DNA of 64,000 nt from Candidatus Berkelbacteria bacterium (GCA_016187225.1 JACPKC010000010.1:67541-131540), one strand, 5' to 3'. Shown: positions 28,894 to 45,304, counted from the stretch's first letter. Notes: generated by a model not told the origin, from the letters alone. Numbers and translations are program-made.

Positions 28894-30546
28894 TTACTCG
28901 TTCCCGTGGAAGGGTCGGCGGATAATAAAGTATGAGACAATACCCGAAAGGATCGATGCTATCAGAAGAACAATGATTAGATTCGCTCCAGAACTTGCGA
29001 GTTTGACGGGTGCGCCTTTGCCGTCGGTTTTGGTTTGGACGACAACCGGTTCTTTTGCTGTTACTGCTTGTGTGCCAAGTATCTTCTCGCCTTGACGAAC
29101 TGTAATCGTATAATTACCGGCCGTCGTGTAGGTATGTTTCAAAGTTGTTGGGCAAGTGACGTTGCTTTGCACAATGCCGTCTCCAAAATCAACAGTTAAG
29201 TTGGTAATCGTATCGCCGGTGCAAGTAAAGGCAACTTCAAACGGCACTGTGCCTGTGGTTGGGGTCACTGCAAAGGTTCCTGTTGGGGGAGTGACGACAG
29301 TTTGAATTTGGGTTTGTGAAATTGTAAAAGAGGCGCTCTTGCTTTGAGTTTTATTTTCGGCCAAATAACTAACAGTCACAATATAGTTGCCTGAAGCGGC
29401 CGTCAGGCCGTCGGATTTTTTCTGATCCCAGGTCCAGGTCTTCGACTGGCCAATACTTAAATCGATGAGCGCTTGAGTCGAGATCGGCTCAAAGATCGCC
29501 GTGGAACCTTGCAGAATCTTAAAGGGCGCCCCATTCGGCAATTGAACCTTTGCTTCGCCAGTGTTTTTAAGCGTAAATTCCACCAGTTCAGCCGGTTTGT
29601 AGATGCTTTTCGAGGTTGTCAAGCTAACCGAAATTACTTTAGGCTTCTCAATGGGTTTGGGTTCTTCTTTGGGCTGTGTAGTCGTGACGGTTTTTGTATC
29701 GACAGTCTTACCATTGACGATCAGAGTGACTGTAAAAGTTCCCACCGAAGTATAAGTATGGGTTTCAGCGGCATTTGCATCGTCTAGGGTTGTGCCATCG
29801 CCAAAGTTCCATTTAATCTTGGGCGAGGCGCTACCGCCTTGCGGCGGTGTATAGGTGGCTGTTACCTTTAAGGGAATATTTCCCGTTGTTGGCTCGACCA
29901 CCATTGTGCCCAAATCATTTGGATCATGCAGAGCACTAAACGCAAAATCATCAATTCCAAAACCGTCAGTAGTGCCAGGAGCATTTTTCTTTAAGCGAAT
30001 CTCGGCAATGCCACTATCCGCAGTGGTGGCAGCAAGAGTGACTGGTGAGTTTACGCACTGACCACCCCCAGGAGCATTAACGGTCTTTGTAGCGATGCTC
30101 TTACCGTCAATATCAAATGCTTCAATACTTACTTCGGCATTGCCAGCATTCCCAATAGAAAAATTCATAGAATCACTGACACGCCCCTGGGTAAACTTTA
30201 TCACTAGAGGAGCGTATGAGCTTGGTTTTGCGATTAGAATATTTGGCTCCGACGGCACTTTGTAGCTTGGGCAAGCCGCACTTGCCCCAGACGCCGCAAA
30301 AAGCGTTGCACCGCTACCGCCGCCGTCCGGACTCAAAATCTCTACACCTTTGTCGGCATAGGCATCGCCAGCAATATCGCCTGAAGATTTATCATCCCAG
30401 TTGAGAGTGGTTTTTTCTGTCGCAATGTCGGCTTGTGAGAGCTGAAAAGTTTGAATGCTCCAATAGCCTAAACTCGCACTAAAAATTAGCGCGCTCACAA
30501 CCAGCGCTTGCCGCACTCTCAAGTATAACGGTGGTATTTTAGCCAC
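28894..30546 (-). CDS. Cell-surface protein with signal peptide, tandem PKD/Ig-like domains and a C-terminal TM anchor
   Basis: PKD signatures (WNFGDGTTLDD...HTYTSVGTFTVTL; VDFGDGIVQSN...HTYTTAGNYTITV); N-terminal signal/TM; C-terminal hydrophobic helix plus RRPF tail. Confidence 0.7.
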   Translation of the reverse strand: MAKIPPLYLRVRQALVVSALIFSASLGYWSIQTFQLSQADIATEKTTLNWDDKSSGDIAGDAYADKGVEILSPDGGGSGATLFAASGASAACPSYKVPSEPNILIAKPSSYAPLVIKFTQGRVSDSMNFSIGNAGNAEVSIEAFDIDGKSIATKTVNAPGGGQCVNSPVTLAATTADSGIAEIRLKKNAPGTTDGFGIDDFAFSALHDPNDLGTMVVEPTTGNIPLKVTATYTPPQGGSASPKIKWNFGDGTTLDDANAAETHTYTSVGTFTVTLIVNGKTVDTKTVTTTQPKEEPKPIEKPKVISVSLTTSKSIYKPAELVEFTLKNTGEAKVQLPNGAPFKILQGSTAIFEPISTQALIDLSIGQSKTWTWDQKKSDGLTAASGNYIVTVSYLAENKTQSKSASFTISQTQIQTVVTPPTGTFAVTPTTGTVPFEVAFTCTGDTITNLTVDFGDGIVQSNVTCPTTLKHTYTTAGNYTITVRQGEKILGTQAVTAKEPVVVQTKTDGKGAPVKLASSGANLIIVLLIASILSGIVSYFIIRRPFHGNE

Positions 30547-30721
30547 AATCCCTCCTTTTGCTAGTATTTTAATACTAAATGGTAAATACTAAATGGTAAA
30601 TAGCGAACGGACCGAGTATTTTGATTGCTTTGCAAGTAAGCGGTGGAAAACATCGCTCACATATTTTTTCGGTCTGCTACAATATATATAATTGTTAGGC
30701 TAAATGAATCTATGGAGGGGT

Positions 30722-31105
30722 ATGTCGTTTTTAGATAAACGTTCGTCAAGGCGAACCATTATTTTTTTGATCTTACTCATCCTGATTGCTGGAGCGATTC
30801 GTTATTTTACAATTAAGCCTCAAACTATTATCACGCCAACCACCGCAACCATTAATGAGCAACTGGCAGAAAAAACTGGCATAATCCGTTCATTTGATGG
30901 CGCGACCGTAAAAGTTACCGATCAGGAAGGCAATGAGCAAGCTTTTACTTTAACAGATGACGTTAGAATTCGCGTCACGAATGACGAGGGTATTTTTGTG
31001 GAAGGTAAAAAAGATGATTTTAAGGCCGGTCGCGCCATTTCCTATTATCTTTTAATCGGCATCTCGAGTCCGATGAGTAGTTCAGTTGATATCGTGAAGG
31101 AGTAG
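30722..31105 (+). CDS. Small membrane-anchored hypothetical protein
   Basis: RBS GGAGGGG; N-terminal TM (IIFLILLILIAGAI) and a soluble roughly 90-aa domain. Confidence 0.4.
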   Translation: MSFLDKRSSRRTIIFLILLILIAGAIRYFTIKPQTIITPTTATINEQLAEKTGIIRSFDGATVKVTDQEGNEQAFTLTDDVRIRVTNDEGIFVEGKKDDFKAGRAISYYLLIGISSPMSSSVDIVKE

Positions 31106-31107
31106 CC

Positions 31108-33114
31108 ATGACGCATGCTCGATTTTTAGCCCTTTTTGCTTTTGTTTGGGGATTGTTATTCTTAGGGTCGGCGCAAGCCCAGGTTTATGACCACCCGGGT
31201 TTGGGTCTTAAGGTGCCAGAAACTTCATGTTATACCTACCGAACTGGTGTTAGATTTGCCATAACTAATAGTTCTTCTATACCAATAATTGAGTCGAATA
31301 ATGATTCACAGTACGACTCATTCTATGCTTCATTAACAACGCCTGGCACAGGCGCACCAGCGAATAATTCAGTTTGTAACTTTGCAGTGCCGGCTGATAC
31401 CGCCGAAGTGAAATTACTTGCCATTCAACGGCCAGGAAGTCAACAAGCAATGCAACAATGGGCAAATTGTCCTAATTTACCTCAGTGGATGCAAAACATA
31501 TTTTGCCCCGGTGGCGCTAATCCAATGACTACGCCAGCTTCTATTAATTTCACGGGCGAATATCACAACTACGAGACCGGCAATCCTATCAATCCAAACG
31601 ATTTCACTCTTTATAAGCAAACTCAATATGCGCTGAATCCGGTTGTGCTCACAAGTAATAGCAATGGTATTGTCGACTTTTCAAACATTACTCCGGTGGA
31701 TGATCAGGTCTTGCCACCTCCGAATCTACCCACAGGCCGACCGTGGCAGTATCGAAATCAAAGAATCGGTATGAACAATGGGAGCAATGGGAATATTCAA
31801 ATCGCAACGGCTGGGTCGGTTTTCTACGTTAACATTCGCAAAGGTGCGATTCAGAGTCTACCGGGAAACTTTAATTTAAATTCTCCGACAACCTCATGTT
31901 CAGGCAACTCGCCTCGAGTAACATTAAATTGGGGATCATCGCAAAGCGCAACTTCGTACGCAGTTTACCGTAATAATGTGGCGCTTAGTTTGAATGTCAC
32001 AAGCCCTTGGACCGACAACTCCGTTGCGTCTGGCTCGCATACCTATAAAATTCGTGCTCAAAATTCAGTTGGCTATACCGAGAGCAACTCTCAATTAGTC
32101 AATGTGCCAACCTGCCAGCCTCAACCAGTATTATCCAGTGTTGCGATTAATCCACCTTTTGCCACAGTAATTACAAATAATATTGTGCAGTTTAGCGCCA
32201 ATTGCCGCGATCAGAATGGCGCCAACTTTAATGGCGCATCCGTGCTTTGGGGCGCGCAAAGAGGATCAATCAATCAATCAGGCCTTTATACTGCTCCGGC
32301 GACTGCGGGTTCCGATACCGTGACTGCCCAGTGCGCGGCTGTGGGCCAGAATCCAGTTACTGGCGCCGCGCCTGTGACAGTTAAAGGGGGGCAAATAACT
32401 GGGGATATCTTTGCCGAGGGCGATGTCAGCAATCTTAATATCGATCCGGATTCAGTTGTCTCATCGAATGGAAGCGTCACTGTGACTGGCACGAATAACA
32501 CAATTCAGCAATACGACAGCAATGCTTCTCAACAAGCAGATACTGTTATTCAAAAACTCATCAATGAGAAGGCCAATGTCCTTGGCGCTGGTAGTTCGGC
32601 AAGTTGCACTAATAGCAATAGCGGTAATTACACGCTCAATAGTGTCTTCAATCTAAATCCCAAACAAGCGGGCAATCCCAGTGACTCTGAAGAAAATGCC
32701 GCTAACCCAGAGGGCGGAGTTTGGTTTGTGCGTCACAATTTAATCATGCGCGGCGCTACCTTTAAGGGTAAAGGCACAATCATTGTCTGCGGAGATGTGA
32801 ATTTAATTTCACCTTCGAATGAGAAAACTATTGCTTACCAAGACGGTGGCACCGGCGATGATCTGGTTGGATTGATTAGCCTGAACGGCAATATCGATTT
32901 AAGAAATTATGATAATCTAGTCGGCGCTTATTACGCGCCAAATGGCACGATTGATGTTGGGCAGGGTAGTTCCTCGCTTGGGCTTTATATTGGGGAAAAT
33001 ATTACCCTTCAAGCCGCTGATGTGACTGTTGATTACGATGGTCGCATTACTAACGGTCCACCCCCAGGCTTCAGCAAATCCTTCGTACCCTCGCTTTCTG
33101 AGGTCGCGCCGTAA
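31108..33114 (+). CDS. Secreted 668-aa protein with Big_2-like Ig domain and an unassigned C-terminal beta-rich domain, possibly pilus-associated
   Basis: Signal peptide (FLALFAFVWGLLFLGSAQA); Big_2-like segment (VLSSVAINPP...QFSANCRDQNG); C-terminal module LVGAYYAPNGTIDVGQGSS...LQAADVTVDYDG; immediately upstream of pilN/O-like genes. Confidence 0.55.
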   Translation: MTHARFLALFAFVWGLLFLGSAQAQVYDHPGLGLKVPETSCYTYRTGVRFAITNSSSIPIIESNNDSQYDSFYASLTTPGTGAPANNSVCNFAVPADTAEVKLLAIQRPGSQQAMQQWANCPNLPQWMQNIFCPGGANPMTTPASINFTGEYHNYETGNPINPNDFTLYKQTQYALNPVVLTSNSNGIVDFSNITPVDDQVLPPPNLPTGRPWQYRNQRIGMNNGSNGNIQIATAGSVFYVNIRKGAIQSLPGNFNLNSPTTSCSGNSPRVTLNWGSSQSATSYAVYRNNVALSLNVTSPWTDNSVASGSHTYKIRAQNSVGYTESNSQLVNVPTCQPQPVLSSVAINPPFATVITNNIVQFSANCRDQNGANFNGASVLWGAQRGSINQSGLYTAPATAGSDTVTAQCAAVGQNPVTGAAPVTVKGGQITGDIFAEGDVSNLNIDPDSVVSSNGSVTVTGTNNTIQQYDSNASQQADTVIQKLINEKANVLGAGSSASCTNSNSGNYTLNSVFNLNPKQAGNPSDSEENAANPEGGVWFVRHNLIMRGATFKGKGTIIVCGDVNLISPSNEKTIAYQDGGTGDDLVGLISLNGNIDLRNYDNLVGAYYAPNGTIDVGQGSSSLGLYIGENITLQAADVTVDYDGRITNGPPPGFSKSFVPSLSEVAP

Positions 33115-33146
33115 TCCAATGTGCTATACTTTAAGCATACTTTCTA

Positions 33147-33809
33147 TTGAGGAGGGGCGTGTTAAGTTTCCAAAATGATGGCATTCAACCGGCTAAGACG
33201 CCGGCAAATGGAGCGGCAGGCCCAGCGCCTGTTCAACCAGCCAAATCTGCTCTTGACCCAAGTGTGGTAGCAATCAACCCGGAATCAAACGATTCGCTAA
33301 TCGCAATTTTTGCGGGTTTAAGTGTTGCTCTTAGTCTCCTCGGCGGTGTTGCGGCCTCATTTTTGCGGGCCCAAGCGAAAGGAGAAGCTGAAGCCTCAAG
33401 TCAAAAAGTGACGAGCCTTCAGCAGGAATTCGCCTCGGGCGATCTTAAAACTATGCTCGATAAGGCTGGTTTAGTTGAAAAACAGCTCGAGGTCACAAAA
33501 GAATTCTCTGCCGCCCTGCCTTGGCCAAAGCTCTTAAAAGCTCTAGCCGACAAAGTCCCTGGATCGGTTAAATTTACGGCCAATTCTTTTGAAACTGACA
33601 AGTCATTAAGAATTGACGGCTCGGCAAATAATTACGCCGAGGTAGCGCGACTCATGACCGCCATCGAGTCGACGGATGAGTTTTCGGAGATTGCGCTGAC
33701 GAGCGCAACTCTTTCTGAATCTGTCGACGGTAATTCGATTACTTTTTCAATCACGGCCAAATATGCGGCGCCAGTCGCTGGAGGGGATGATGGCGGAAAT
33801 ACAAACTGA
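33147..33809 (+). CDS. PilN-like type IV pilus assembly protein (bitopic)
   Basis: About 50-aa cytoplasmic N-terminus, one TM, periplasmic domain with PilN-like topology; sits upstream of a pilO-like gene and pilB. Confidence 0.45.
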   Translation: MRRGVLSFQNDGIQPAKTPANGAAGPAPVQPAKSALDPSVVAINPESNDSLIAIFAGLSVALSLLGGVAASFLRAQAKGEAEASSQKVTSLQQEFASGDLKTMLDKAGLVEKQLEVTKEFSAALPWPKLLKALADKVPGSVKFTANSFETDKSLRIDGSANNYAEVARLMTAIESTDEFSEIALTSATLSESVDGNSITFSITAKYAAPVAGGDDGGNTN

Positions 33810-34389
33810 ATCAACTAAACATAACACTTTGTTGTGGCTAATTTTAGGCGTGATTGGTTCAGCCGCGGCATTCTATTTATATACCTTGCCTCAAATTCGC
33901 GAGCTCAAGCTTTTGCGCACGCAGTCGGCGACGCTTGAGGCTGATCTTTCAAGCTTAAACGAAAAGAAAACCACTGTTGTTAAATTAAACGACGATCTTA
34001 AAAGGAGCACTGCGCTGACTGACAAACTTGCTCTGGCTGTGCCAGAGGATGAGGCTATCGATGAGCTCATTACTTCACTTGAAAAGATTGTTGAAAAAGC
34101 GGGCATTACTTTGTTGTCGGTTCAGCCGGCAAGCAATGTTGAAACAGGCAAGACAACCGCTATGCTTTCAACCCGAGGCTCATATTCCGGCACAACACTA
34201 TTTCTTGAATTTTTAGAAAAGAACCTTCGTCCGATTGGCGTCAATGATCTTGCACTCACAGCGACGTCGGATATTCAAGGCGCGTCGCTGATTAGCGCCT
34301 CATTCGAGATTACTCCTGCCCAGATTGCCAAGGCCGCACCGGCGGCAGAGACGTCCGCTCAAGACACAGAGACAAAAGGAGCCCAATGA
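33787..34389 (+). CDS. PilO-like type IV pilus assembly protein
   Basis: Short N-terminus, TM (LLWLILGVIGSAAAFYLY), coiled coil (LKLLRTQSATLEADLSSLNEKK), C-terminal alpha/beta domain; start chosen after the upstream stop overlap. Confidence 0.45.
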   Translation: MMAEIQTESTKHNTLLWLILGVIGSAAAFYLYTLPQIRELKLLRTQSATLEADLSSLNEKKTTVVKLNDDLKRSTALTDKLALAVPEDEAIDELITSLEKIVEKAGITLLSVQPASNVETGKTTAMLSTRGSYSGTTLFLEFLEKNLRPIGVNDLALTATSDIQGASLISASFEITPAQIAKAAPAAETSAQDTETKGAQ

Positions 34390-34637
34390 ATCGGCCCATA
34401 GTAATTGGCATCGGTTTAGGAGTGAATCTCATTCTTGCGGGTGTGACACTTTGGCTGATTATGCGCGCCGTGCCCATGACGTCGGATATTGAAAGCGCCC
34501 GGACAAAAGTTGAACCTGCGCCAAAATTTACGATCAAAGATATCGAGGCGCTTAAATTGGATGAAAAAACCCTGAATGGTGACTTGCCGATCTCGATTGA
34601 TGGAGTTGGGCGTGTCGATCCATACGCGGGGATTTAG
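34386..34637 (+). CDS. Small membrane protein (83 aa) within the pilus operon
   Basis: ATGA overlap with the upstream gene; one TM; could be a PilP-like accessory protein. Confidence 0.3.
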   Translation: MNRPIVIGIGLGVNLILAGVTLWLIMRAVPMTSDIESARTKVEPAPKFTIKDIEALKLDEKTLNGDLPISIDGVGRVDPYAGI

Positions 34638-34642
34638 CAATT

Positions 34643-37153
34643 ATGGTGAACCCTCAAGCCCAAAATAATTTGGAGATTCTCAAAAAAACGGCCGCTGAAC
34701 TCGGCCTTGAGCTTGTCGCACTCACCCAGGACACTCCTGAACAATCCGCCCTGGCTCTGGTGCCCGAAGCATTGGCGCGTCAATATCAGTTACTGCCTTT
34801 AACTCTTAAAGAGAAATCACTCACTCTCGTCTTAACTGATCCAGCGCTCTTGACAAAACCAGCGCCCAAATTTCTGCAGGAACTCAAGCAAAACGGGTAT
34901 CATCTGCGTTTGCAACTCACATCCAGCGAGGATTTTCAAACTGCTTTGGGAGCTTATCGACCACAAGTCAATGGCCAGAGGCCACTATCCAGAGTGAATA
35001 ACGCTCAAAGTCAGAACATGCAAGCGAAAACAACTGTGCAGGCAGGTCCTCAACCAGTAACTAGTATACCCCCAGTCGCTTCACCCGCACTTTCGGTGCC
35101 AGCCTCGGTGCATTCGGCGCAAGTCGAGTTAGTTATATTGAAAAGCAGAGAAGTGCCTTTGAACGTTTTAAACAAATTCCCCCAGGACGTGGCGAAAAAG
35201 TATCAGATGGTTGTGTTTGAACTTTCAGCCGACGGTCAGGAGGCATCCGTTGCCGCCCTTAAACCTAACGACCGTCGAATTCGAGAAATTCTCAAGTTTA
35301 TTGAGGCGCGAAACAAGGTTCGAATTCATTTATTCTCGGCGAGTAAAGAGGATATTGAAGGAGTATTGAAGCAATATGACACAGAGCACAGAGAAGACAA
35401 AAAACCAGCCCAAGCTCCAACGCCAATTTCTTCGATCTCTACTCCGCCTGCGCAGAAGTCAGCCATGGTTTCGGCGCCACTAAAGCCGAGTTTTGCGCCG
35501 ACAATTCTCACTCCTTCAGTGAAACCTAATTCTGTGTCGCGCATTCCACCCAAACCCGTTTCAGCGCCGCTCCCAGTTGTCCCCAAAAGACCTATCTTGT
35601 CGCCTTTGCCGACGCCGCTGGCGGCGCGGCCAGTTACGCCCATTGGGCCCAAAATCGGCGGCCTTACACCAGCTCAACCAATTGCGCCCGAGACGCCAAA
35701 TAGTTTGGGCACGACCGATCTTAAATCATACCAAGAAGCAATCATTCGTAATTCTGCCACTCTTCGAGATCCAAGTACGCCGGTTCCAACGGTCGAAGTT
35801 GGTGATTTACAACTCCCAACCAATCAACTTGGCGTGGGCGAGTTGCCGGAAGGACAAGCGCCGATTATGATAACCAATATCGGCGCAGAAGATAAAAATC
35901 TCGACATAGTTCTCGGCACGACCGTTGAAACTTCTGAACAACTTGAGCAAATTCTTAAATCTGGCATGGTGCCAAAAATTGTCGCCGCGATCGTGTTTTA
36001 CGCCACTGCCGTGGCCGCATCCGATATTCACATGGAGGCTGGTGAGAAAGAGGTTCGGATTCGCTTTCGTGTTGATGGCACTTTACAGGAAATTATCAAA
36101 TTGCCGGTTCAACTTTTGGCGCCGATTGTGTCGCGCATCAAAATTTTAGCCAAACTCAAAATCGATGAATCGCGCATCCCGCAAGATGGCCGTTTCGGGG
36201 TGATTGTGCAAAAGCGGGAAATTGATCTGCGAGTTTCAACCCTGCCAACAGTTTTCGGCGAAAAAGTGGTTATGCGGATTCTCGATAAAGAAAAAAGTTT
36301 GAAAAAACTCACTGAATTGGGTATTCAGGGTACTAATCTCGCTCGAATCCAGTCAGCAATCAAAGACCCCTTTGGTATCATTTTAGTGACTGGTCCGACC
36401 GGTTCAGGCAAGACCACAACACTTTACGCGATGTTAACTGAACTCAATACCGCAAGTGTCAACATTGTTACTCTCGAAGACCCGGTCGAGTATCAGCTTG
36501 ATGGCATCAATCAGACCCAGGTCAAGCCAAAAATCGGCTTTGGTTTTGCCGATGGTTTACGTTCAATTCTGCGGCAAGACCCGAACATTATTATGGTTGG
36601 CGAGATTCGCGATGGAGAGACTGCCGGCCTGGCAACTCAAGCCGCGTTGACCGGTCACCTGGTGCTTTCAACTTTGCATACCAACGACTCATCTGGAGCG
36701 CTTCCCCGGATGATCGATATGCACGTTGAACCATTCCTCCTAGCTTCTTCGGTGAATATCGTGATTGCCCAGCGTTTGATTCGTCGCTTGTGCTCAAAGT
36801 GTCGCCAGCCAGCCTCAATTCCGGCCGAAACTCTCACTCGCATTCAGCAGGAGCTCGCCTCGGCATTCGCTCCTGAACTTAAATCAGCGGCGAGTAAGCA
36901 ACTTTCTTTCTTCGGCCCAAATCAAAAGGGCTGCAATGTCTGTCATAATGGTTATAAGGGTCGGGTCGGGATTTACGAAGTTCTAATTACCAGTCCGGCT
37001 ATCGCCGATCTCGTTCTTGCTAAATCCGCCTCGTCCAAAATTGCGGCTAAAGCTCACGAAGAGGGGATGATCACACTTAGAGAAGACGGCATCCTTAAAG
37101 CCATGCAAGGTGAAACATCGCTTGACGAAGTCATTCAAGCCACCAGCGAATAG
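34643..37153 (+). CDS. pilB: Type IV pilus assembly ATPase PilB (GspE family) with duplicated N-terminal domains and a Pro-rich linker
   Basis: Walker A VTGPTGSGKTTTLYAML; Asp/His boxes; tetracysteine CSKC...CNVCHNGYKGR; two T2SE_N-like segments. Confidence 0.85.
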   Translation: MVNPQAQNNLEILKKTAAELGLELVALTQDTPEQSALALVPEALARQYQLLPLTLKEKSLTLVLTDPALLTKPAPKFLQELKQNGYHLRLQLTSSEDFQTALGAYRPQVNGQRPLSRVNNAQSQNMQAKTTVQAGPQPVTSIPPVASPALSVPASVHSAQVELVILKSREVPLNVLNKFPQDVAKKYQMVVFELSADGQEASVAALKPNDRRIREILKFIEARNKVRIHLFSASKEDIEGVLKQYDTEHREDKKPAQAPTPISSISTPPAQKSAMVSAPLKPSFAPTILTPSVKPNSVSRIPPKPVSAPLPVVPKRPILSPLPTPLAARPVTPIGPKIGGLTPAQPIAPETPNSLGTTDLKSYQEAIIRNSATLRDPSTPVPTVEVGDLQLPTNQLGVGELPEGQAPIMITNIGAEDKNLDIVLGTTVETSEQLEQILKSGMVPKIVAAIVFYATAVAASDIHMEAGEKEVRIRFRVDGTLQEIIKLPVQLLAPIVSRIKILAKLKIDESRIPQDGRFGVIVQKREIDLRVSTLPTVFGEKVVMRILDKEKSLKKLTELGIQGTNLARIQSAIKDPFGIILVTGPTGSGKTTTLYAMLTELNTASVNIVTLEDPVEYQLDGINQTQVKPKIGFGFADGLRSILRQDPNIIMVGEIRDGETAGLATQAALTGHLVLSTLHTNDSSGALPRMIDMHVEPFLLASSVNIVIAQRLIRRLCSKCRQPASIPAETLTRIQQELASAFAPELKSAASKQLSFFGPNQKGCNVCHNGYKGRVGIYEVLITSPAIADLVLAKSASSKIAAKAHEEGMITLREDGILKAMQGETSLDEVIQATSE

Positions 37154-37161
37154 GAGTTCCG

Positions 37162-38268
37162 ATGGTTGAGACGCAATCCACGCAAGCCATGTTGGGCGCC
37201 AACGATCGCTCACTTTCACCACATTTAAGCGAGATGCTTAAATTCGCAATTGAACATAGCGCTTCTGACTTACACATTCAAATCGGCGTGCCGCCAGTTA
37301 TCCGCATCGACGGCAAACTTCGCTCGGTGCCAGATCAGCCCCTTTATACTCAAGAATCGGCGGCCGCCGACGTGCTTTCGAGTCTAGGGACCGTGCAACG
37401 CGAACGCTTTGCGACCGAACGCGAACTCGACTTTTCTTTTACCTTTGAAACGATGCGCTTACGTTGCAATGTTTACTATGAAAAAGGCAACATCGTCGGC
37501 GCTTACCGATTAATTCCAACTCAAATTCGAACTGTTGAACAACTTGGCTTGCCGCCGGTTTTGGTTCAGTTAACCGAACACAAACAAGGACTCGTGATTA
37601 TTACTGGCCCAACTGGCCATGGCAAATCCACCACGCTGGCGGCTTTAATCGACCATATTAATCACAATCGCTCCGAGCACATTATTACAATTGAGGATCC
37701 AATCGAGTACATTTTCGCAAATCAGAAAAGCGTCATCTCCCAACGTGAAGTGGGCTTCGATACCAAAACTTTCGCCAATGCCTTGCGCGCTTCCATGCGC
37801 CAAGACCCGAATGTAATTTTAGTCGGTGAGATGCGCGATTTGGAAACGATGGCTTCAGCGTTAACGCTCGCTGAAACTGGTCATTTAGTTTTCACAACTT
37901 TGCACACCAACTCCTCGGCCGAAACCGCTGATCGCATTATCGATGTCTTTCCGCCGCATCAACAACAGCAGATTCGCTCTCAACTTGCCTCGGTTTTATT
38001 GGGCGTCATTTCTCAACGTCTCCTGCCTAAAATCAATGGCGGGCGAGTTGCGGCGGCAGAAATTATGCTGGGCACAACCGCCGTTCGAAATACCATTCGC
38101 GAGGGCAAGACTCATCAGCTCGACAATATTATTCTCACCGGTTCAGCCGAGGGTATGATTAATCTCGATGCTGTGCTTGCCGGTCTCGTTAATAAGGGGG
38201 AAGTTACAATTGACGATGCGATCAACTGGGCGCGCGATTCTAAACAACTCAAGATTAATATCTTTTAG
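37162..38268 (+). CDS. pilT: Twitching-motility retraction ATPase PilT
   Basis: Walker A ITGPTGHGKSTT; PilT signature AIRNTIREGKTHQL; 368 aa, no zinc-finger. Confidence 0.9.
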   Translation: MVETQSTQAMLGANDRSLSPHLSEMLKFAIEHSASDLHIQIGVPPVIRIDGKLRSVPDQPLYTQESAAADVLSSLGTVQRERFATERELDFSFTFETMRLRCNVYYEKGNIVGAYRLIPTQIRTVEQLGLPPVLVQLTEHKQGLVIITGPTGHGKSTTLAALIDHINHNRSEHIITIEDPIEYIFANQKSVISQREVGFDTKTFANALRASMRQDPNVILVGEMRDLETMASALTLAETGHLVFTTLHTNSSAETADRIIDVFPPHQQQQIRSQLASVLLGVISQRLLPKINGGRVAAAEIMLGTTAVRNTIREGKTHQLDNIILTGSAEGMINLDAVLAGLVNKGEVTIDDAINWARDSKQLKINIF

Positions 38269-38270
38269 TT

Positions 38271-39353
38271 ATGCCCGAGCCCGTAAAAAAACCCGCCCTC
38301 AAGTTCGAGATTGATATTCCTTTTTTGAATAATGTTTCAGTGAGAGAGAAGTCTTTTTTAGCGCGCCAGCTGGCCACGATGCTTGCAAGCGGTTTGGCGC
38401 TTAATCGTGCCGTGGCTATTCTCGTAGCTCAAACTCAAAACAAAACCCTTAAAACGGCGCTTCAGGGTATTGAAACAGATCTCGAGGGCGGCTTGCCGTT
38501 TTCGGGCGCAATTGCCAAACATCCAAAGATTTTTGACCGAGTTTTCGTGAACGTGGTAATTTCGGGCGAAAGCGTGGGGCGCTTGGCGGATGTGCTCAAT
38601 CAACTTGCCGACCAGCTTGAAAAAGATTCCGGCTTCATGAATCGAGTTAAAGGCGCTCTGGCTTATCCAGCCTTTGTCTTTGTGGCGATGATCGTTGTCG
38701 GCGCAATTACGATGGTTTACATCATTCCGCAACTTCAAAGTGTCTTCGAGGAAGCCGGCGCCGAATTGCCATTTTTAACTCGCATGATTATCGCTATAAG
38801 TCATTTTCTACAAAACTATTGGTGGTTAATTATTATTTTTGTCGTCGTAGGTTTAGCTGTTGGTCGCACATATTTTCGTTCCAAAGCGGGCGAGCGTCTC
38901 TGGGGGCTGATTCAACTTCACCTTCCAGGGCATCTTGGCTACGATATCTATATGGCCAGGTTTAATCGCACCCTGGGAATGCTCGTGCAAGCCGGCACAC
39001 CAATTATCGAAGCAATCAGTGTCACGGCGTCGGTGATGGATAATCTGCTTTATCGCGAGTATTTGGCGGCGGCGGCCGATCAAGTTAAACGCGGCGTCCC
39101 GCTTTCCGTGCCTCTTCAAAAAACCGCGCTTTTTCCGCTCATTGTTGGCCAGATGATCGCAGTTGGCGAGCAAACAGGTCGCCTCGATCAGATTCTCTTA
39201 AAACTCGCCGAGTATTATGAAGAGGAAGCAGATAGTAAAATCAAGCAATTAAGCAGTTTAATTGAGCCGATTGTAATCGTTTTGATCGGTGTTGGAGTGG
39301 GGATTCTTGTCTATGCGATCCTGGTGCCAATCTATAATATCGCACAGTTCTAA
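38271..39353 (+). CDS. pilC: Type IV pilus inner-membrane platform protein PilC (GspF family)
   Basis: Two T2SSF repeats; three TM segments; follows pilB-pilT. Confidence 0.85.
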   Translation: MPEPVKKPALKFEIDIPFLNNVSVREKSFLARQLATMLASGLALNRAVAILVAQTQNKTLKTALQGIETDLEGGLPFSGAIAKHPKIFDRVFVNVVISGESVGRLADVLNQLADQLEKDSGFMNRVKGALAYPAFVFVAMIVVGAITMVYIIPQLQSVFEEAGAELPFLTRMIIAISHFLQNYWWLIIIFVVVGLAVGRTYFRSKAGERLWGLIQLHLPGHLGYDIYMARFNRTLGMLVQAGTPIIEAISVTASVMDNLLYREYLAAAADQVKRGVPLSVPLQKTALFPLIVGQMIAVGEQTGRLDQILLKLAEYYEEEADSKIKQLSSLIEPIVIVLIGVGVGILVYAILVPIYNIAQF

Positions 39354-39870
39354 GGGTTTTACGCTTTTAGAGCTCATGATCGTTATCACGATCGGCGGTA
39401 TTTTAATTAGTGTTGTCGGCATGAATTTTTCGTCAACGCGAAGGCAGGCGCGGGACGCGGTGCGGAAAAGTGACGTTGAGGCGATTCAAACGGCGCTCGA
39501 GCTTTATTACAACGCTCACAATGAGTTTCCCAATTTCAATACCTGGGCAACGAGCAATAACTCGATCGGATCTGGCAATTGGGCCTCGCTTCAGCAGGAT
39601 TTAAGCCCATATTTAAGTTCAATGCCGACCGATCCGGTGAATGCGAGTGGAACTACGCCTGAAAATGGCGGGCTGGCTTACGGCTATCTATCCACAGCCG
39701 CCTATGGTTGCACTGGACAATGGTATGTTCTTGTTTATACACTTGAAGTTGAGAACGATCCCGCTTTAACTCGAAGCCCAGGGATTTCTACTTGCAACAG
39801 TCAAACGCTTAACGATAGCAACCTTGCAAGCGCTCCTTGGACGTTTTGGGTCGGTGTCTCTGGGAGTTAA
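39313..39870 (+). CDS. Prepilin-type protein (pilin/pseudopilin) with class III signal peptide
   Basis: KG|FTLLELMIVITIGGIL prepilin cleavage/methylation motif; start uncertain (overlaps the pilC 3' end). Confidence 0.6.
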   Translation: MRSWCQSIISHSSKGFTLLELMIVITIGGILISVVGMNFSSTRRQARDAVRKSDVEAIQTALELYYNAHNEFPNFNTWATSNNSIGSGNWASLQQDLSPYLSSMPTDPVNASGTTPENGGLAYGYLSTAAYGCTGQWYVLVYTLEVENDPALTRSPGISTCNSQTLNDSNLASAPWTFWVGVSGS

Positions 39871-39970
39871 AATATGCTAGAGTAATCAAAAGGTATTTAT
39901 CGATCGAAGTTGAGAACGTCTTGGCTCTATCGGACAAAAATTATCACTCACAATAATAAAAGGAGGCAGA

Positions 39971-40465
39971 ATGAATTTACATAGAAGTAAACAACGAGGT
40001 TTCACGCTCCTCGAGCTCCTCGTTGTGGTTGCGATTATCGCGATTTTAGCCGCGGTGATTGTGGCAAACTTAAACTCGGCGCGAAGTAAGGCAAATGATG
40101 CCAAGGTGAAGCAGGATCTCAATGGCGTCGATCAGGCACTTGCAGTTGCGACCGCTGACCCATCGGTTCTTGGATCGGCGCCTTTAAACGCCTTAAATAA
40201 TGGCGGCGGCGTTTTAGTTGATATCGACACCGAAACGGCGCTAACAGTTAATGGTTATCTTAAGACTTTTCCAATTCCACCATCGGGTATAACGCAATAT
40301 AACTATCGTAGCAACTATTCCAATGGGATTTTCGGCTATGTGTTGTGGGGTACACTCTCAACAAAAACTGGCGCAAACAATGACTGCTGGGTTATAAACA
40401 CCGGTAACGCTTTTCAGTCGAACGGCTGTCTTGCCGCCGATACAACTGGTGTAACACTTCCGTAA
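39971..40465 (+). CDS. pilA: Type IV major pilin (PilA-like)
   Basis: Strong RBS AAAGGAGG; leader MNLHRSKQRG|FTLLELLVVVAIIAILAAV; C-terminal Cys pair; stands alone with its own RBS. Confidence 0.75.
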   Translation: MNLHRSKQRGFTLLELLVVVAIIAILAAVIVANLNSARSKANDAKVKQDLNGVDQALAVATADPSVLGSAPLNALNNGGGVLVDIDTETALTVNGYLKTFPIPPSGITQYNYRSNYSNGIFGYVLWGTLSTKTGANNDCWVINTGNAFQSNGCLAADTTGVTLP

Positions 40466-40478
40466 TTTAAGAATTTTC

Positions 40479-41273
40479 ATGTCGGAGTTTGAGCAAGCGG
40501 TCAATTTTTGGCCGCTTGCGGCGATTTTTGGTCTGTTTTGGGGTTCATTCTTGAATGTTCTTGCTTTGCGCTGGGGTTCAAAGTATCGAGGCTTGACACT
40601 CGCAGAACGGAGTCACTGCCCAAAGTGCCAAAAAATTTTAAATTGGCACGAGCTTCTGCCCCTAATAAGTCTTATACTTTTACACGGCCGTTGCCGAGGC
40701 TGTCGAAAAAAAATTGACTTGCGCTATCCAGGCGTTGAAATTTTAACCGCAGTTTTTCTTGGGGGAATAGTTTTTAAGTATGGGTTGTCAGCTCAAGCCT
40801 TAACTCTGTCAGTTGCCGGGAGTTTGCTTTTGATCGCGGCGCTAGTTGATTTTGAAACTCAAATTTTACCCGATTCTTTAGTTGCAAGCGCTTTCGTTTT
40901 AACTCTCCTTGTAACACTTTTACTGGGTCAATCAGCGCTTGTGAATCTAGCGTTTCCAGTTTCCAGTTGGTGGCGGGGCGCCTTAACCGGCGGGTTGATC
41001 ATCGGCGCGATTTTTCTTCTTACGCGTGGGAAGGGGATTGGTTTTGGCGATGTTAAATTAGCGACCGTGCTCGGATCAGTAGTCGGTATGAGCGGCGCCC
41101 TACTTATGTTGTGGAGCGCGTTTATTTTGGGCAGTCTTGTGGGCGGAACACTTCTACTTCGTCGCCGCGCAACCTTAAAGACCGCTCTTCCATTCGGCCC
41201 CTTTTTATTTGCTGGCTGGCTGATCGCGCTTTTTTGGGGTCGTGACATCATTGCATGGTATACTCAATTATAA
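40479..41273 (+). CDS. pilD: Prepilin peptidase PilD (A24 family)
   Basis: N-terminal CPKC...CRGC zinc-finger; multi-TM with the conserved Asp-containing GFGDVKL box. Confidence 0.85.
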   Translation: MSEFEQAVNFWPLAAIFGLFWGSFLNVLALRWGSKYRGLTLAERSHCPKCQKILNWHELLPLISLILLHGRCRGCRKKIDLRYPGVEILTAVFLGGIVFKYGLSAQALTLSVAGSLLLIAALVDFETQILPDSLVASAFVLTLLVTLLLGQSALVNLAFPVSSWWRGALTGGLIIGAIFLLTRGKGIGFGDVKLATVLGSVVGMSGALLMLWSAFILGSLVGGTLLLRRRATLKTALPFGPFLFAGWLIALFWGRDIIAWYTQL

Positions 41274-41292
41274 TATTGACGGGTAATAAGTT

Positions 41293-41796
41293 ATGCGTAA
41301 AAACGATACTAATCAGGGTTTCTCGCTTATCGAACTCTTAATCGTCATGGTTATTATTGGTATGTTGGCAACCGTCGTTACTATTTCGTCTTCAGCCTCA
41401 AGGGCGCAGGCGCGCGATAGTCGCCGCAAATCCGATGTCCAGACCGTGGCCGCGGCGCTTGAAACTTATCGAGTTGAGAACAAAGTTTACCCAACCGAGA
41501 ATAACTTCTCCGGAAGCTGGGACGACCTCAAAGTCGTGCTTTTCCCCGATTTTATTTCCGAATGGCCCGACGATCCACAAGGCAATGCCAGTCAATATGG
41601 CGAGGGGTATGTGTACGCAACCGACTCGCTTGGTTCGGCTTACGCGCTTGACGTCACCTTAGAAGGGGATGAAGACGTAACCTTGCAACCCAACGAAATC
41701 GACGAAACTTTGACAGTTAATCCAGATGAAGATTTTTTCGTCACAGGTATCTATAGTTATGGCGGCGACACCCATTACCGCTTCAGCGGCCGGTAA
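41293..41796 (+). CDS. Minor pilin / pseudopilin (prepilin-type N-terminus)
   Basis: NQG|FSLIELLIVMVIIGML motif. Confidence 0.65.
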   Translation: MRKNDTNQGFSLIELLIVMVIIGMLATVVTISSSASRAQARDSRRKSDVQTVAAALETYRVENKVYPTENNFSGSWDDLKVVLFPDFISEWPDDPQGNASQYGEGYVYATDSLGSAYALDVTLEGDEDVTLQPNEIDETLTVNPDEDFFVTGIYSYGGDTHYRFSGR

Positions 41797-42283
41797 GGGC
41801 TTTACCCTTATTGAACTTATCATTTCGATGGCGATCATCGTGATGCTTTTAGGTTTGGGAATTCCAGCTTTTCGACGCTATGGTTTACGAGCTGATCTAG
41901 AAAATGCAGGTGTGACTTTAGCCACTAATATCTTTCGGGCGCGCACTTTAAGTTTGGCGCCCGAAGCGAGCAAAGAAGGTAATATCACGGCCTACGGCGT
42001 TGCTTTTGATGCTCTGAATAATAAATACCGCATTGCGCGCTTTAGTGGCGAGGGGGCAAACGTTCAAGAAGAAAGCGTCGTCGATCAATTTCTTTTACCC
42101 AATCAGGTCGCTTTTTCGGTTGCGCCTGCCGAGCCGATTCTTTTTCCGCTTGCTCTTCAAGGCGAGCCGGCCCAGCTGCCCGCGGATAGCAACCTCGCTC
42201 TTTTACACACTCGACTCGCCCAAAACAACTCGCGGACTATAAACATCAATCAAGTTACCGGTCAAGTCAGCTTAGAGGAGTAA
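41759..42283 (+). CDS. Minor pilin (GspH/FimT-like)
   Basis: GKG|FTLIELIISMAIIVML motif; start uncertain (overlaps the upstream gene). Confidence 0.55.
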   Translation: MAATPITASAAGKGFTLIELIISMAIIVMLLGLGIPAFRRYGLRADLENAGVTLATNIFRARTLSLAPEASKEGNITAYGVAFDALNNKYRIARFSGEGANVQEESVVDQFLLPNQVAFSVAPAEPILFPLALQGEPAQLPADSNLALLHTRLAQNNSRTININQVTGQVSLEE

Positions 42284-42284
42284 A

Positions 42285-42905
42285 GTGAAGACAGCTTTCA
42301 ACGCGCCACCGGCGACAAGAGGTTTCGGCTTGCTTGAGGTTGTGCTCGCAACCGGTATTTTGGCGCTCGTTGTTACTGGCGCAGTGGCGCTTTTGAATGG
42401 CGCCTTGCGCCGAGCGAATTTGTCAGCCGAGCGAACGACGGCTATGAACCTTGCGCAAGAGGGGATTGAGCTTGTTCGAGCCGCTCGCGATATCACCTTC
42501 ATTGACGATGAGAATAATGCTTGGGATGCAAATTTACCGATCTCAACCGATGAAGGCACTTTGCAAGCGGCTGGTAGCGATCCTTATGGAATTGCTTATG
42601 TGCTTGTACCGGGAAGCGGTGGTCTTTATGCATGGCAACTTAGAAAAAATTACCCGCCCACAGCATTCATTGGCGGTGGGATCGCAAATGGCATCCAAAC
42701 CATCCCACTCAATGATATCGATTACCAGCGTGAGGTTTATGTAACCGTGCCATCACTTGGTTACGTTACGCAGGCTGGCTTGCCAAATGGCGTCACCGAT
42801 GACGATATTATCCGCAAGATTAAGGTAATTGTGCGATGGGGAGATAGCGCCGGGCAGGCGGTTGAGTCGATTACTTATCTCACTAATTGGCGAACGGGAA
42901 CGTGA
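42285..42905 (+). CDS. Minor pilin (PilV/PilW-like)
   Basis: TRG|FGLLEVVLATGILALVV motif; GTG start. Confidence 0.5.
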   Translation: MKTAFNAPPATRGFGLLEVVLATGILALVVTGAVALLNGALRRANLSAERTTAMNLAQEGIELVRAARDITFIDDENNAWDANLPISTDEGTLQAAGSDPYGIAYVLVPGSGGLYAWQLRKNYPPTAFIGGGIANGIQTIPLNDIDYQREVYVTVPSLGYVTQAGLPNGVTDDDIIRKIKVIVRWGDSAGQAVESITYLTNWRTGT

Positions 42906-43492
42906 TGACCAAAGGCTTCACTCTTATAGAGGTGCTTATTGCTTCATCGATTTTTGTTGGAGTGCTAATGATCGGCACAATCTCTTTCAGTTCAACAAGC
43001 ACAAAAAGTGAAGAGGTGAAGCACATTCAAACCACAGCGCAAACCGCGAGATTGATTGCCGAGGCGATTTCACGCGATGTGCGAGCCTCTACCGGTGAGA
43101 AAGCGCCCGATGGCACATATCTGCAGTATCCTTTTACGCTTTTTAGTAACAATCAAAAAGTAACCTCTCTCGTATTGGGCGTAGCGAGTGGCGACGCACT
43201 CGAAATTGCGCGCTACGATCCGACTACGCAAGCTATCGTTACAAAGAAATATGCCGTAACTCTAAATGGCAATGGCGAAGAAATTTTTTCGGTCAGTAAA
43301 AATGGGGGAGTGGCCGAATCGCTTCTTCCAACTGGTTACTCAATTCAAGGCGTCTATTTTTGGGCTGTAACGCATGAACTTGCGGCCGATCGTTTTTATC
43401 CTTTTGTGAAATTCAGTTTTGCTGTTGTTCATAATGAGTCGGGCACTTCACAAAGAATCAGCTCGGCCGTTGCCACGCGGGAACTGTTCTAA
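42905..43492 (+). CDS. Minor pilin (prepilin-type N-terminus)
   Basis: MTKG|FTLIEVLIASSIFVGV motif; ATGA overlap with the upstream minor pilin. Confidence 0.6.
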   Translation: MTKGFTLIEVLIASSIFVGVLMIGTISFSSTSTKSEEVKHIQTTAQTARLIAEAISRDVRASTGEKAPDGTYLQYPFTLFSNNQKVTSLVLGVASGDALEIARYDPTTQAIVTKKYAVTLNGNGEEIFSVSKNGGVAESLLPTGYSIQGVYFWAVTHELAADRFYPFVKFSFAVVHNESGTSQRISSAVATRELF

Positions 43493-43644: not shown

Positions 43645-44778
43645 GTGCGTATTTTCTTCATTCTGGCTTTCAGCCTCCTCTCGGCCGTGCCTACCTGGGC
43701 GAAGCTAAGCGAGCAGGAGGTCCGAGCTGTTCTCATCGGAGTGGAAGAAGACAATTTAAACGATCGCTATAGCGAGTCGTGGTGGACACGAGAATTTCGT
43801 CTTTTCAGTGGCACGAACGACGAGTGGTCGCTTGATTCTTACACTCGACAACATGTGCAAAAAGAAATCAGTCGACTCCGGAGTGGCAAAACTCCACTCC
43901 GTATCTGGGAGTATGATCCAGGTCATGCGATTGTAGTCATTTACCATCTCTGGGATAAAGATCAATCCAGGCTTGTAACGAGTTCAATCGCGCACCTTGT
44001 GCGAGAGGAGGGTCGCTGGAAACAGTCGGCAAGTTCCGGAATCTGGTTGAATTATAGTGTCCTCGGTTTCCCGCGAGCAACTCCAGCTTATCTTGATCAG
44101 GATTTCGCAAAGTCTAAAAGGAACTTCTTGAACAAGAAACCCAAGAAGACTTTGGTGACCGCGGCTCAAAAAGCGCTTAAAACACTTATCCCAAAGTACG
44201 ATCTGGGGGGAACATTGTCTTCGAGTAAGTGTCTGCGTGTCATACTTTGCGAGGGTTGGAACGAGCAACGTAAAAAGTCAACCATCAAACTTTTAATTGA
44301 GCTCAATCAACCACTTACTTCAAACACATACTCAAAATACGTCTTGTTCGAGGTTGGATTGGACGACCTGGCAACAGGGAAAACGCTTGTCGTGCGTCCA
44401 CTCGATGAAAATGGAATTTTTGATTTCCCAAAGGTAGCGATTTCATACGAACTAGCCCCTCAAGTTGCGTTTGGGCCGACACGCCAGGCGCTTGCCGAAG
44501 CGAAAGGCGCGTATAAACAGGGGTGTGTTTTGTTTGCATCCTGGTGCGCCCTGAACCGACTCGATCGCGTTCAGACCTACTTTTCTTCTGACAAGCAGGG
44601 GAAAGTATGGTGGCAGGCGGCTTTCCCATTCGCCAAACTAACGTGGCAGAATGTCGAGCTCGTTGAGTTTAGCTCCGCCAAGGTCAAGCTCATCTTGCCC
44701 ACCCGGCACGGAAAAACCGCGGTTGTCTTAGTGAAAGAAGGTAATCGTTGGCGCGCCCAGTCGGTCGACAATGAGTAG
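43645..44778 (+). CDS. Secreted hypothetical protein (377 aa)
   Basis: GTG start with RBS AAGGAGG; signal peptide (FFILAFSLLSAVPTWA); no recognisable domain. Confidence 0.45.
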   Translation: MRIFFILAFSLLSAVPTWAKLSEQEVRAVLIGVEEDNLNDRYSESWWTREFRLFSGTNDEWSLDSYTRQHVQKEISRLRSGKTPLRIWEYDPGHAIVVIYHLWDKDQSRLVTSSIAHLVREEGRWKQSASSGIWLNYSVLGFPRATPAYLDQDFAKSKRNFLNKKPKKTLVTAAQKALKTLIPKYDLGGTLSSSKCLRVILCEGWNEQRKKSTIKLLIELNQPLTSNTYSKYVLFEVGLDDLATGKTLVVRPLDENGIFDFPKVAISYELAPQVAFGPTRQALAEAKGAYKQGCVLFASWCALNRLDRVQTYFSSDKQGKVWWQAAFPFAKLTWQNVELVEFSSAKVKLILPTRHGKTAVVLVKEGNRWRAQSVDNE

Positions 44779-44809
44779 ATGAGTGGCGGGGCAGGTCGCT
44801 CAATTTTCC

Positions 44810-44834
44810 AGGCCCCACAAGGGCCTTTTCTTTT
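44810..44834 (+). terminator. Intrinsic terminator (AGGCCC-CACAA-GGGCCT followed by TTTTCTTTT)
   Basis: GC hairpin plus U-tract directly after the 43645..44778 gene. Confidence 0.5.
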
Positions 44835-44869
44835 ACAGCTCACCCGAGCTTGTTATACTGCCACCATCT

Positions 44870-45304
44870 ATGCAACCCCTTGAGTATATTGTTAACACCG
44901 ACGGCGGCGCCCGTGGCAACCCAGGCCCCGCTGGCGCGGGCATTGTCATCCAAACCCAAACGGGCGAAATTTTAAGTGAGCTTAAAAAATCACTCGGCAC
45001 GCTCACGAATAATCAAGCCGAATACTGGGGCGTTATTTTTGCCCTTGAAGAGCTCAAGCAGTTTATCGTGAATGATATTGCGCCAGTTCGTTTCCATCTC
45101 GATAGCCTGCTCGTAGTTGAACAACTCAAGGGAAACTATAAAATCAAGAATGAAGGTTTAAAGCCGCTTTTTTGGAAAGTAAAAACTTTAATCGACGAAC
45201 TTGGTGTCGTGGTGAGTTTTAAGCACATTCCGCGCCGGGAAAATACTCGCGCTGACGAACTCGCCAACCAGGCGATGGATGAAGTAGATAGGTCACGAAC
45301 GTGA
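44870..45304 (+). CDS. rnhA: Ribonuclease HI
   Basis: TDGGARGNPGPAGAGIV...NNQAEY...D....H..R..NTRADELAN catalytic DEDD/H pattern; start trimmed to MQPLEYIVNTDGG. Confidence 0.75.
   Translation: MQPLEYIVNTDGGARGNPGPAGAGIVIQTQTGEILSELKKSLGTLTNNQAEYWGVIFALEELKQFIVNDIAPVRFHLDSLLVVEQLKGNYKIKNEGLKPLFWKVKTLIDELGVVVSFKHIPRRENTRADELANQAMDEVDRSRT

Follow-up and report, generated by a model that had tools for sequence, protein, structure and literature searches.

We analysed 64,000 nucleotides of a metagenome-assembled genome of Candidatus Berkelbacteria, a very small bacterium of groundwater (GCA_016187225.1, JACPKC010000010.1:67541-131540; hereafter the window), in which a co-linear cluster of type IV pilus (T4P) genes occupies positions 30704-43492 of the plus strand. 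Profile searches place PilN, PilO, an 83-aa membrane protein, PilB, PilT, PilC, PilD and six prepilins in this cluster, and near its head lies the gene for a 668-aa secreted protein identical to NCBI HYW32_03275. The open reading frames (ORFs) and their colinearity had been described beforehand in a reading made from the DNA alone (hereafter the sequence-only reading), and all were recovered at exactly the same coordinates; its description of a secretin-less T4P locus retaining both the extension ATPase PilB and the retraction ATPase PilT is supported by Pfam matches. Such a secretin-less locus, similar to those of type IVa pili (T4aP), is in itself ordinary for Patescibacteria, where type IV pili are near-universal. 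The operon nevertheless appears to be a distinct and undescribed variant, which lacks PilM, has a long PilB and is headed by a rare family of DUF7305-like solenoid adhesins. In the literature searched, we found neither a mention of DUF7305 nor a description of this operon arrangement.

From the first gene, orf133, to pilC, neighbouring genes overlap or lie at most 32 nt apart, and from there to the last minor pilin gene the gaps are shorter than 20 nt, with the sole exception of a 100-nt spacer 5' of pilA. Because of these short gaps and overlaps, together with a promoter-like site in the divergent spacer of 157 nt, the cluster reads as a single operon that would be transcribed from that spacer. 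The site resembles a sigma-70 promoter (CTCACA-16-TACAAT with a TG), as a consensus match only. In line with the strong ribosome-binding site that the sequence-only reading had given to pilA, the gene has its own AAGGAGG 6 nt 5' of its ATG. Immediately 3' of pilA, and within the start of the pilD ORF, lies a hairpin that may act as an attenuator, setting a high ratio of major pilin to the products of the downstream genes (Table 1).

The earlier assignments of pilN and pilO survive the profile searches, and the duplicated N-domain and Pro-rich linker claimed for PilB are confirmed by two MshEN stretches (E 6.2e-18) and the linker itself. PilT is devoid of an N-domain, and its AVRNTIRE motif was read from the sequence. 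As expected for a monoderm, no ORF scanned in the window has a Pfam match to a secretin or to PilP, nor was a secretin found in the 10 kb past each window end. Between pilO and pilB lies orf83, members of whose family follow pilO in nine Berkelbacteria-type loci, with analogous proteins in loci that contain PilM; it looks like a conserved, unnamed component of the machine. An LG(R/K)xDPF-like end is kept by this small transmembrane (TM) protein in both PilM-less and PilM-containing loci of Patescibacteria (the window, L002, L005, L006, L010, L011, L013, L016, L017 and L082-L085). The idea that orf83 encodes a minimal PilP, based on a likeness of the motif to PilP N-termini, has no Pfam support and is kept as a lead.

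Six ORFs carry the prepilin motif G↓F(T/S/G)L(I/L)E, with Glu5 kept in all six. Four exceed the Pfam cutoff for N_methyl and five that of NCBIfam TIGR02532, minor pilin 4 falling just short of the former (21.1 bits against 21.2). The sixth, minor pilin 3, is below the N_methyl cutoff, and its N-terminus matches XpsI and PilV. The six prepilins and the minor pilins named in the sequence-only reading are thus upheld by the profile searches, the sixth by its motif and these two matches. Translation of prepilin 1 probably begins at the ATG at 39313.

Table 1. Positions of the pilus genes, associated features and DNA-processing genes in the window
Feature	Position	Strand	Evidence or remark
550-aa surface protein, N-terminal signal/anchor, two PKD stretches, C-terminal TM anchor	28894..30546	-	PKD_4 E 9.4e-16
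Divergent intergenic region, likely operon promoter	30547..30703	+	sigma-70-like site 30656-30683
orf133, single-pass membrane protein, beta-rich ectodomain of ~90 aa	30704..31105	+	first gene of the operon
668-aa secreted modular protein	31108..33114	+	Sec signal peptide, Fn3-like, Big_2-like, C-terminal domain
C-terminal domain, conserved beta-solenoid with one long helix	32383..33111	+	exhaustive HMMER family and AlphaFold2 model
PilN-like, long Pro/Ala-rich cytoplasmic N-terminus, no INLLP motif	33147..33809	+	PF05137 E 1.6e-10
PilO-like	33763..34389	+	PF04350 E 3.9e-6, above cutoff
orf83, TM protein, C-terminal motif LPI...G(R/K)xDP(F/Y)	34386..34637	+	no Pfam match
PilB extension ATPase, 836 aa, duplicated MshEN, Pro-rich linker, Cys4 motif	34643..37153	+	T2SSE E 4.5e-132
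PilT retraction ATPase, 368 aa	37162..38268	+	T2SSE E 6.6e-45; AVRNTIRE motif
PilC platform protein	38271..39353	+	T2SSF in two stretches, E 1.1e-55
Prepilin 1, cleavage SSKG↓FTLLE	39289..39870	+	N_methyl E 1.9e-8; TIGR02532 29.3 bits
PilA, candidate major pilin	39971..40465	+	N_methyl E 1.6e-10
PilD prepilin peptidase / N-methyltransferase	40479..41273	+	A24_N_bact E 4.4e-25; Peptidase_A24 E 1.8e-13
GC-rich hairpin (12 bp, 7 GC) followed by a T-run	40493..40519	+	pattern scan only
Minor pilin 1, GspG/H-like N-terminus	41293..41796	+	N_methyl E 9.4e-9
Minor pilin 2	41726..42283	+	N_methyl E 3.6e-5; TIGR02532 23.7 bits
Minor pilin 3, PilV/GspI-like N-terminus, RG↓FGLLE	42285..42905	+	XpsI E 6e-7, PilV E 6.5e-6
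Minor pilin 4, GspJ/PilW-like N-terminus	42887..43492	+	TIGR02532 22.5 bits, above cutoff
recJ	10747-12486		Pfam scan
radA	13167-14507		Pfam scan
dprA	50943-52037		Pfam scan
recR	53880-54629		Pfam scan

The secreted protein and its C-terminal domain family

The 668-aa protein starts with a Sec signal (residues 1-22, MTHARFLALFAFVWGLLFLGSAQA↓Q) and has no N_methyl match. The signal is followed by an orphan N-region (23-245), an Fn3-like domain (250-335), a Big_2-like immunoglobulin (Ig) domain (340-425) and the C-terminal domain (CTD, 426-668), and the protein has no significant Pfam match of its own. In the AlphaFold model of the full-length protein, the predicted local distance difference test score (pLDDT) is above 90 for residues 250-650 and below 50 for residues 23-245. 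Foldseek relates the Ig domains to the tandem Ig domains of LigA and SbsC (E about 3e-6); for the N-region of ~230 aa there is neither a relative, even among the proteins of the CTD family, nor a confident model.

The distinctive beta-rich C-terminal module pointed out in the sequence-only reading belongs to a family of its own. A HMMER search, run exhaustively with the final 243 aa, returned 93 cluster representatives with E<=1e-3 among 1.84 billion, 43 of them with E<=1e-10. The domain is nearly always found at the extreme C-terminus, and a Sec-type signal leads every CTD protein that we read, that is, the 40 fetched and the one in the window. These proteins range from 364 to 1224 aa, and their N-terminal parts are variable, carrying Big_9, cadherin-like, DUF11, BACON, fn3, FG-GAP and Big_2 domains. 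AlphaFold2, given a 27-sequence alignment, models the CTD as a beta-solenoid flanked by a single long helix (pLDDT 82, predicted template modelling score 0.83). The domain ends in a tail with the consensus YDGRITxxPPPGFSxxFVPxLSExxP, the last 18 residues of which are strongly conserved yet modelled with low confidence or as disordered, as would be expected of a peptide that binds a partner.

By its profile matches and model, the CTD appears to be a distantly DUF7305-like beta-solenoid that weakly resembles ice-binding proteins and the solenoid of ComZ. DUF7305 (PF23981) matches 12 of 41 CTD members at E<=0.01, with most of the profile covered and a best E of 1.2e-8, and the L005 orthologue of the window protein scores 24.1 bits. 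Foldseek searches of the PDB returned ice-binding proteins at E 0.015-0.1 and the ComZ solenoid (6qvi) with a probability of 0.57-0.87, E 0.15-0.28 and a TM-score of about 0.3. A pilin-like protein encoded among the pilins of L022 is also hit by DUF7305, though weakly (E 0.004; 17.5 bits, threshold 27). Against the sequences in the PDB, the CTD profile found chance-level matches to the T4 gp5 beta-helix alone, and a scan of metagenome loci yielded no relative that could be confirmed. In a word-index search, the whole 668-aa query returned Ig-domain matches alone, the 27-sequence profile two proteins, and the 243-aa CTD missed even its parent protein, so that negatives from this index are uncertain for low-complexity queries rich in Gly, Asn and Ser.

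In 10 of 11 informative, phylogenetically related contexts examined with the family hidden Markov model (HMM) and protein by protein, the CTD gene lies at most three genes upstream of pilN-pilO (the window, L005, L017, L082, L083, L084, L085, L087, L089 and the P0039 contig); two further contigs were too short to judge. Across these contexts, the proteins share 30-48% identity in the CTD, and their N-terminal parts are unrelated. In the window, orf133 ends 2 nt 5' of the gene for the 668-aa protein, and proteins with the layout of orf133 are likewise encoded ahead of the CTD gene in L082 (two copies), L083, L084, L085 and L087. Orf133 has no Pfam family, and its sequence similarity to those proteins is weak (E 6e-6 against a nine-sequence set). 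In L082, the small TM protein and the CTD protein have been duplicated together, the two pairs lying in tandem.

Divergent from the operon is the gene for the 550-aa PKD-repeat surface protein of the sequence-only reading, for which two PKD stretches and the TM anchor were confirmed; a PKD protein occupies the equivalent divergent position in L083 and L089. Its N-domain (aa 41-228) is homologous to an internal domain of the CTD proteins P0020, P0046 and P0048 (E 4e-24 to 7e-29). Since this domain matches CTD proteins of other genomes, the comparison suggests that adhesion modules are shuffled between the TM-anchored PKD protein and the CTD proteins, which would draw on one common pool.

The sequence-only reading had proposed that the 668-aa protein might be a pilus tip or adhesin partner, and had set beforehand that an unrelated enzymatic fold together with a lack of synteny with pilus genes would speak against it. 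Neither was found. The association with pilus genes stands, and the tip role is plausible. As the gene sits in the slot usually taken by pilM, we also considered whether it could be a PilM in disguise; its Sec signal, the lack of an actin-like fold and the lack of a PilM HMM match led us to reject this.

Absence of PilM and the forms of PilN and PilB

PilM is a cytoplasmic protein that is standard in monoderm T4P. The sequence-only reading had noted that both pilM and pilQ are missing, and neither was found in the window or in 10 kb on either side; for PilM and the secretin, Pfam searches covered window ORFs of at least 110 aa, and for PilM an HMM was run on those of at least 40 aa. The reading had also taken the absence of PilM to be consistent with a monoderm envelope. 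This was mistaken, since PilM is cytoplasmic and normal in monoderm systems. It had, moreover, called the locus complete; the machinery is confirmed, but completeness is debatable given the place of PilM in monoderm pili. A scan for PilB among species-representative genomes gave 598 confirmed relatives, of which the best 80 were analysed, nearly all from Patescibacteria, with a few under other taxon labels. The order of PilT, PilC, pilins and PilD in these 80 loci is much as in the window. The PilM HMM matches 47 of the 80 and none of the CTD-type loci; in L010, L011 and L013, for example, the slot upstream of pilN is occupied by PilM (PF11104, E 1e-43 to 1e-50). Both T4P-1 and T4P-2 of Saccharibacteria have PilM as well (PMC11623550).

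Many PilB loci of Patescibacteria are without PilM within 10 kb, and because many loci keep pilM elsewhere, its absence from a locus is weak evidence if taken alone. The form of PilN offers an independent check. The INLLP peptide at the N-terminus of PilN normally docks PilM. In our comparison, which involves phylogenetically related loci rather than independent events, an INLLP-type motif is found in 37 out of 40 ORFs of PilN size that lie shortly after pilM and in none of the six PilN of CTD-type loci, which have long Pro/Ala-rich cytoplasmic N-termini in its place. The loss of the motif argues that PilM has not merely been relocated. Among the same related loci, PilB measures 797-1120 aa with a duplicated MshEN in seven out of eight CTD-type loci, and 568-655 aa in all 47 PilM loci. 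Thus the lack of PilM, a PilN without INLLP and a long PilB make up a coherent operon type, and the absence of PilM is a peculiarity of the lineage. The N-terminal expansion of PilB is itself variable and goes beyond one duplication, with 1120 aa in L082 (6075-9437) and 915 aa in the P0039 contig.

Possible roles of the secreted protein

We read the locus as that of a retractile, type IVa-like pilus in a monoderm member of the Patescibacteria, and propose, at what we judge to be about an even chance of being right, that this pilus is equipped with a PilY1-like, non-pilin adhesin. Homology shows that PilD processes the six Glu5 prepilins, that the four small minor pilins prime the filament, and that PilB and PilT act on the PilC platform to extend and retract a filament of PilA. 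PilN, PilO and the 83-aa protein form the alignment complex in the membrane, and a secretin is not needed. The features specific to the lineage are the lack of pilM, the loss of INLLP from PilN, the gain by PilB of a second MshEN on a Pro-rich tether, and the addition of two genes at the operon head, orf133 and that of the Sec-exported modular protein. The CTD protein might then serve as a pilus-associated adhesin comparable to PilY1/PilC, coupled to the pilus by its solenoid and flexible tail, most likely at the minor-pilin tip. The variable domains of its N-terminal part (Ig, Fn3 and orphan) would bind the surface of a host or substrate, and retraction by PilT would pull the cell onto its partner. 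We favour the tip because the solenoid resembles, if weakly, that of tip pilins, because no large or Glu5-less cap pilin is present (every minor pilin in CTD-type loci is small, about 150-225 aa, and all those of the window have Glu5), because the disordered tail is conserved, and because a pool of adhesion modules is shared with the PKD protein.

Several points weigh against this proposal. The CTD gene adjoins pilN-pilO instead of the minor pilin genes, which are the usual neighbours of pilY1-type genes. P0065, a family member in L081, is not adjacent to pilus genes, and the contexts that do agree are phylogenetically related and hence not independent. Every Foldseek match of the CTD to the PDB has E >1e-3, and with DUF7305, whose gathering threshold is 27 bits, the protein of the window reaches 11.4 bits (E 0.31). 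Alignment by hhalign of the CTD profile with pilin-borne DUF7305/PilX_N proteins (L022, L076 and L078) gave probabilities of 3-20%, so homology between the CTD and pilin-borne solenoids is not established. Lastly, the absence of PilM was established for about 84 kb around the locus.

As the main rival explanation, the place of the gene could instead reflect a role at the pilus base, where the CTD protein and orf133 would be a static part of the envelope. In this case, the solenoid and tail might bind the ectodomains of PilN and PilO, the wall or an S-layer, and the assembly would form or guard a passage for the filament, as a monoderm substitute for the PilP and PilQ of pilMNOPQ. The gene always heads the pilN-pilO block, home of the alignment-complex genes, it is paired with the gene of a small membrane protein, and it co-varies with the absence of PilM, the altered PilN N-terminus and the long PilB. 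However, variable adhesin-type N-terminal domains and lengths from 364 to 1224 aa would be unexpected in a part of the base, the CTD gene is duplicated in L082, and Patescibacteria with the same envelope manage without the protein; we therefore see the base role as possible but on the doubtful side. It is distinctly unlikely, in our judgement, that the CTD and PKD proteins are ordinary surface adhesins that are co-located or co-regulated with a conventional pilus without being physically linked to it, PilM being encoded elsewhere. The many PilB loci without a nearby PilM indicate that it can be distant, the L081 member shows that the family can occur apart from pilus genes, and the statistics behind the structural links to tip pilins are weak. 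Yet the adjacency to pilN-pilO has persisted despite such divergence in the CTD and unrelated N-terminal parts, and the contrast in INLLP between CTD-type and PilM-linked PilN argues against a mere relocation of PilM. The Sec signal, the conserved domain, the operon linkage and the GspG/H/I/J-like N-termini of the minor pilins could also suit a cargo that a pilus or pseudopilus pushes through the wall or S-layer, in the manner of the type II secretion system (T2SS) or of TcpF, with the CTD as recognition module. This we hold to be highly improbable, as there is no outer membrane to cross, the retained PilT is typical of retractile pili and not of the T2SS, and the data give no sign that the protein is released.

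Returning to the tip-adhesin proposal, it would be tempting to extend it to both ends of the pilus, although this extension is a long shot. In a lineage centred on Berkelbacteria, the loss of PilM would have been accompanied by binding of the Pro-tethered second MshEN of PilB to the cytoplasmic tail of PilN, giving a motor coupling independent of PilM. At the other end, a K-type cap pilin would have been 'split', its solenoid now residing on a Sec-exported protein that docks on a tip of Glu5 minor pilins through the PPPGF...P.L.E..P tail, and its host-binding domains would be swapped by N-terminal shuffling, in common with the PKD neighbour.

Ultrasmall Patescibacteria are believed to locate their hosts and cling to them chiefly by means of type IV pili. 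If the tip-adhesin proposal is true, a docking module encoded in the pilus operon and combined with freely varying adhesion domains would be a direct candidate for the determinant of host specificity in Berkelbacteria and their allies, and the CTD profile would allow host range to be predicted from metagenomic sequences. Moreover, a natural PilN/PilO pair without PilM, with a change in PilB that looks compensatory, would shed light on the coupling between motor and alignment complex across type IV filament machines.

Neighbouring genes and comparison with known systems

The sequence-only reading had also taken dprA, recJ, radA and recR as signs of a competence-type pilus. All four genes are present, but they do not bear out that conclusion. 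RecJ, RadA and RecR are general housekeeping repair proteins whose genes lie 7-24 kb from the operon, and dprA is 7.5 kb downstream, behind genes for RNase H, isoleucyl-tRNA synthetase (IleRS), a second FtsW/RodA-family protein, NusG and L11. Neither comEA nor comEC was found in the window or in the 10 kb beyond either end. We thus rejected competence as a reading specifically evidenced here, PilT, PilN and PilO making the system T4aP-like and not ComG-like; DNA uptake by this pilus is possible and not specifically indicated by the window.

Right after the last minor pilin comes a 377-aa protein with a Sec signal (43645-44778), for which neither a Pfam family nor a relative in any of the fetched loci was found; at the equivalent position, L002 encodes a protein of 308 aa with an N-terminus reminiscent of PilX_N, but without a Pfam match. 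The RNase H-like (RVT_3) gene (44783-45304) lies directly after the minor-pilin block, as it does in L002, L005 and L017, and is followed by that of IleRS in the window and L005. Further downstream, 60461-62230 has a GC content of 57%, against about 47% elsewhere, and encodes two secreted proteins with VQNNNSSTSQSQNxNxxTTVVNTGSG-type repeats. Neither has a Pfam match, and the second ends in an LPxTG-like ELLKTG, a TM segment and RRK, so this compositionally odd patch may harbour a sortase-anchored repeat surface protein. Two large ORFs, of 1029 aa (56345-59434) and 769 aa (20517-22826, minus strand), could not be assigned to any Pfam family at E<=1. At its start, the window has a dcw cluster (20-8713) comprising a penicillin-binding protein fragment, mur genes and ftsW, and tRNA genes on the minus strand include a Trp, Thr, Tyr, Thr cluster at 26706-27256 and tRNA-Pro at 22846-22923. 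About 6-11 kb past the right end of the window, in the same genome, two adjacent large genes (L090, 16185-20984) encode DUF8128 and TrwB/VirD4-type coupling-protein domains and may belong to an apparatus for DNA transfer or a conjugation-like process.

Among known systems, the ComG pseudopilus of Firmicutes shares with the window a monoderm setting, a PilB-like ATPase, a PilC-like platform, a prepilin peptidase and several small pilins, but lacks PilT, PilN and PilO, all three of which are present here; the ComGC/D/E/F models match the N-terminal helix alone, far under their cutoffs. Another parallel is found in Saccharibacteria, whose T4P have been studied experimentally and comprise PilB, PilT, PilC, PilM, PilN, PilO, PilD and many divergent pilins (PMC11623550). 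T4P-1 of the monoderm TM7x (Nanosynbacter lyticus), which serves host binding and twitching, likewise has PilB, PilT, PilC, PilD, PilN and PilO, one small major pilin, several minor pilins and no secretin (PMC11623550). Unlike the system described here, TM7x has PilM1 and PilM2 and no CTD-family gene upstream of pilN, and its PilB is, judging from related loci, about 590 aa long with a single N-domain. Its candidate tip adhesins are pilins with extra domains (PilX1 and PilX2), whereas ours is a Sec-exported non-pilin.

PilY1/PilC proteins (cited in PMC11623550) have been proposed to mediate adhesion from a position on the minor-pilin tip complex. Those of Pseudomonas, Neisseria and Myxococcus resemble the 668-aa protein in being non-pilins with a Sec signal, a variable N-terminal and a conserved C-terminal part, and a gene in the pilus cluster. 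However, PilY1 ends in a beta-propeller, of which the 668-aa protein shows no Pfam match, its model being a beta-solenoid without sequence similarity to PilY1; and the PilY1 gene belongs to the minor-pilin operon, while ours lies upstream of pilN-pilO. DUF7305 differs from the CTD family in that the latter adds an N-terminal strand/helix segment and the conserved PPPGF...P.L.E..P tail. A 2026 preprint reports a triangular solenoid like that of ice-binding proteins in cyanobacterial PilX and in ComZ, and proposes this solenoid to be a tip plug replacing PilY1 (10.64898/2026.02.12.705559). ComZ of Thermus thermophilus (6qvi; PMC6561018) and PilX resemble the CTD protein as solenoids of T4P loci proposed to be at the tip; in these two, the solenoid is inserted in a true pilin with a class III signal and helix, whereas the 668-aa protein bears it behind a Sec signal and has no pilin domain.

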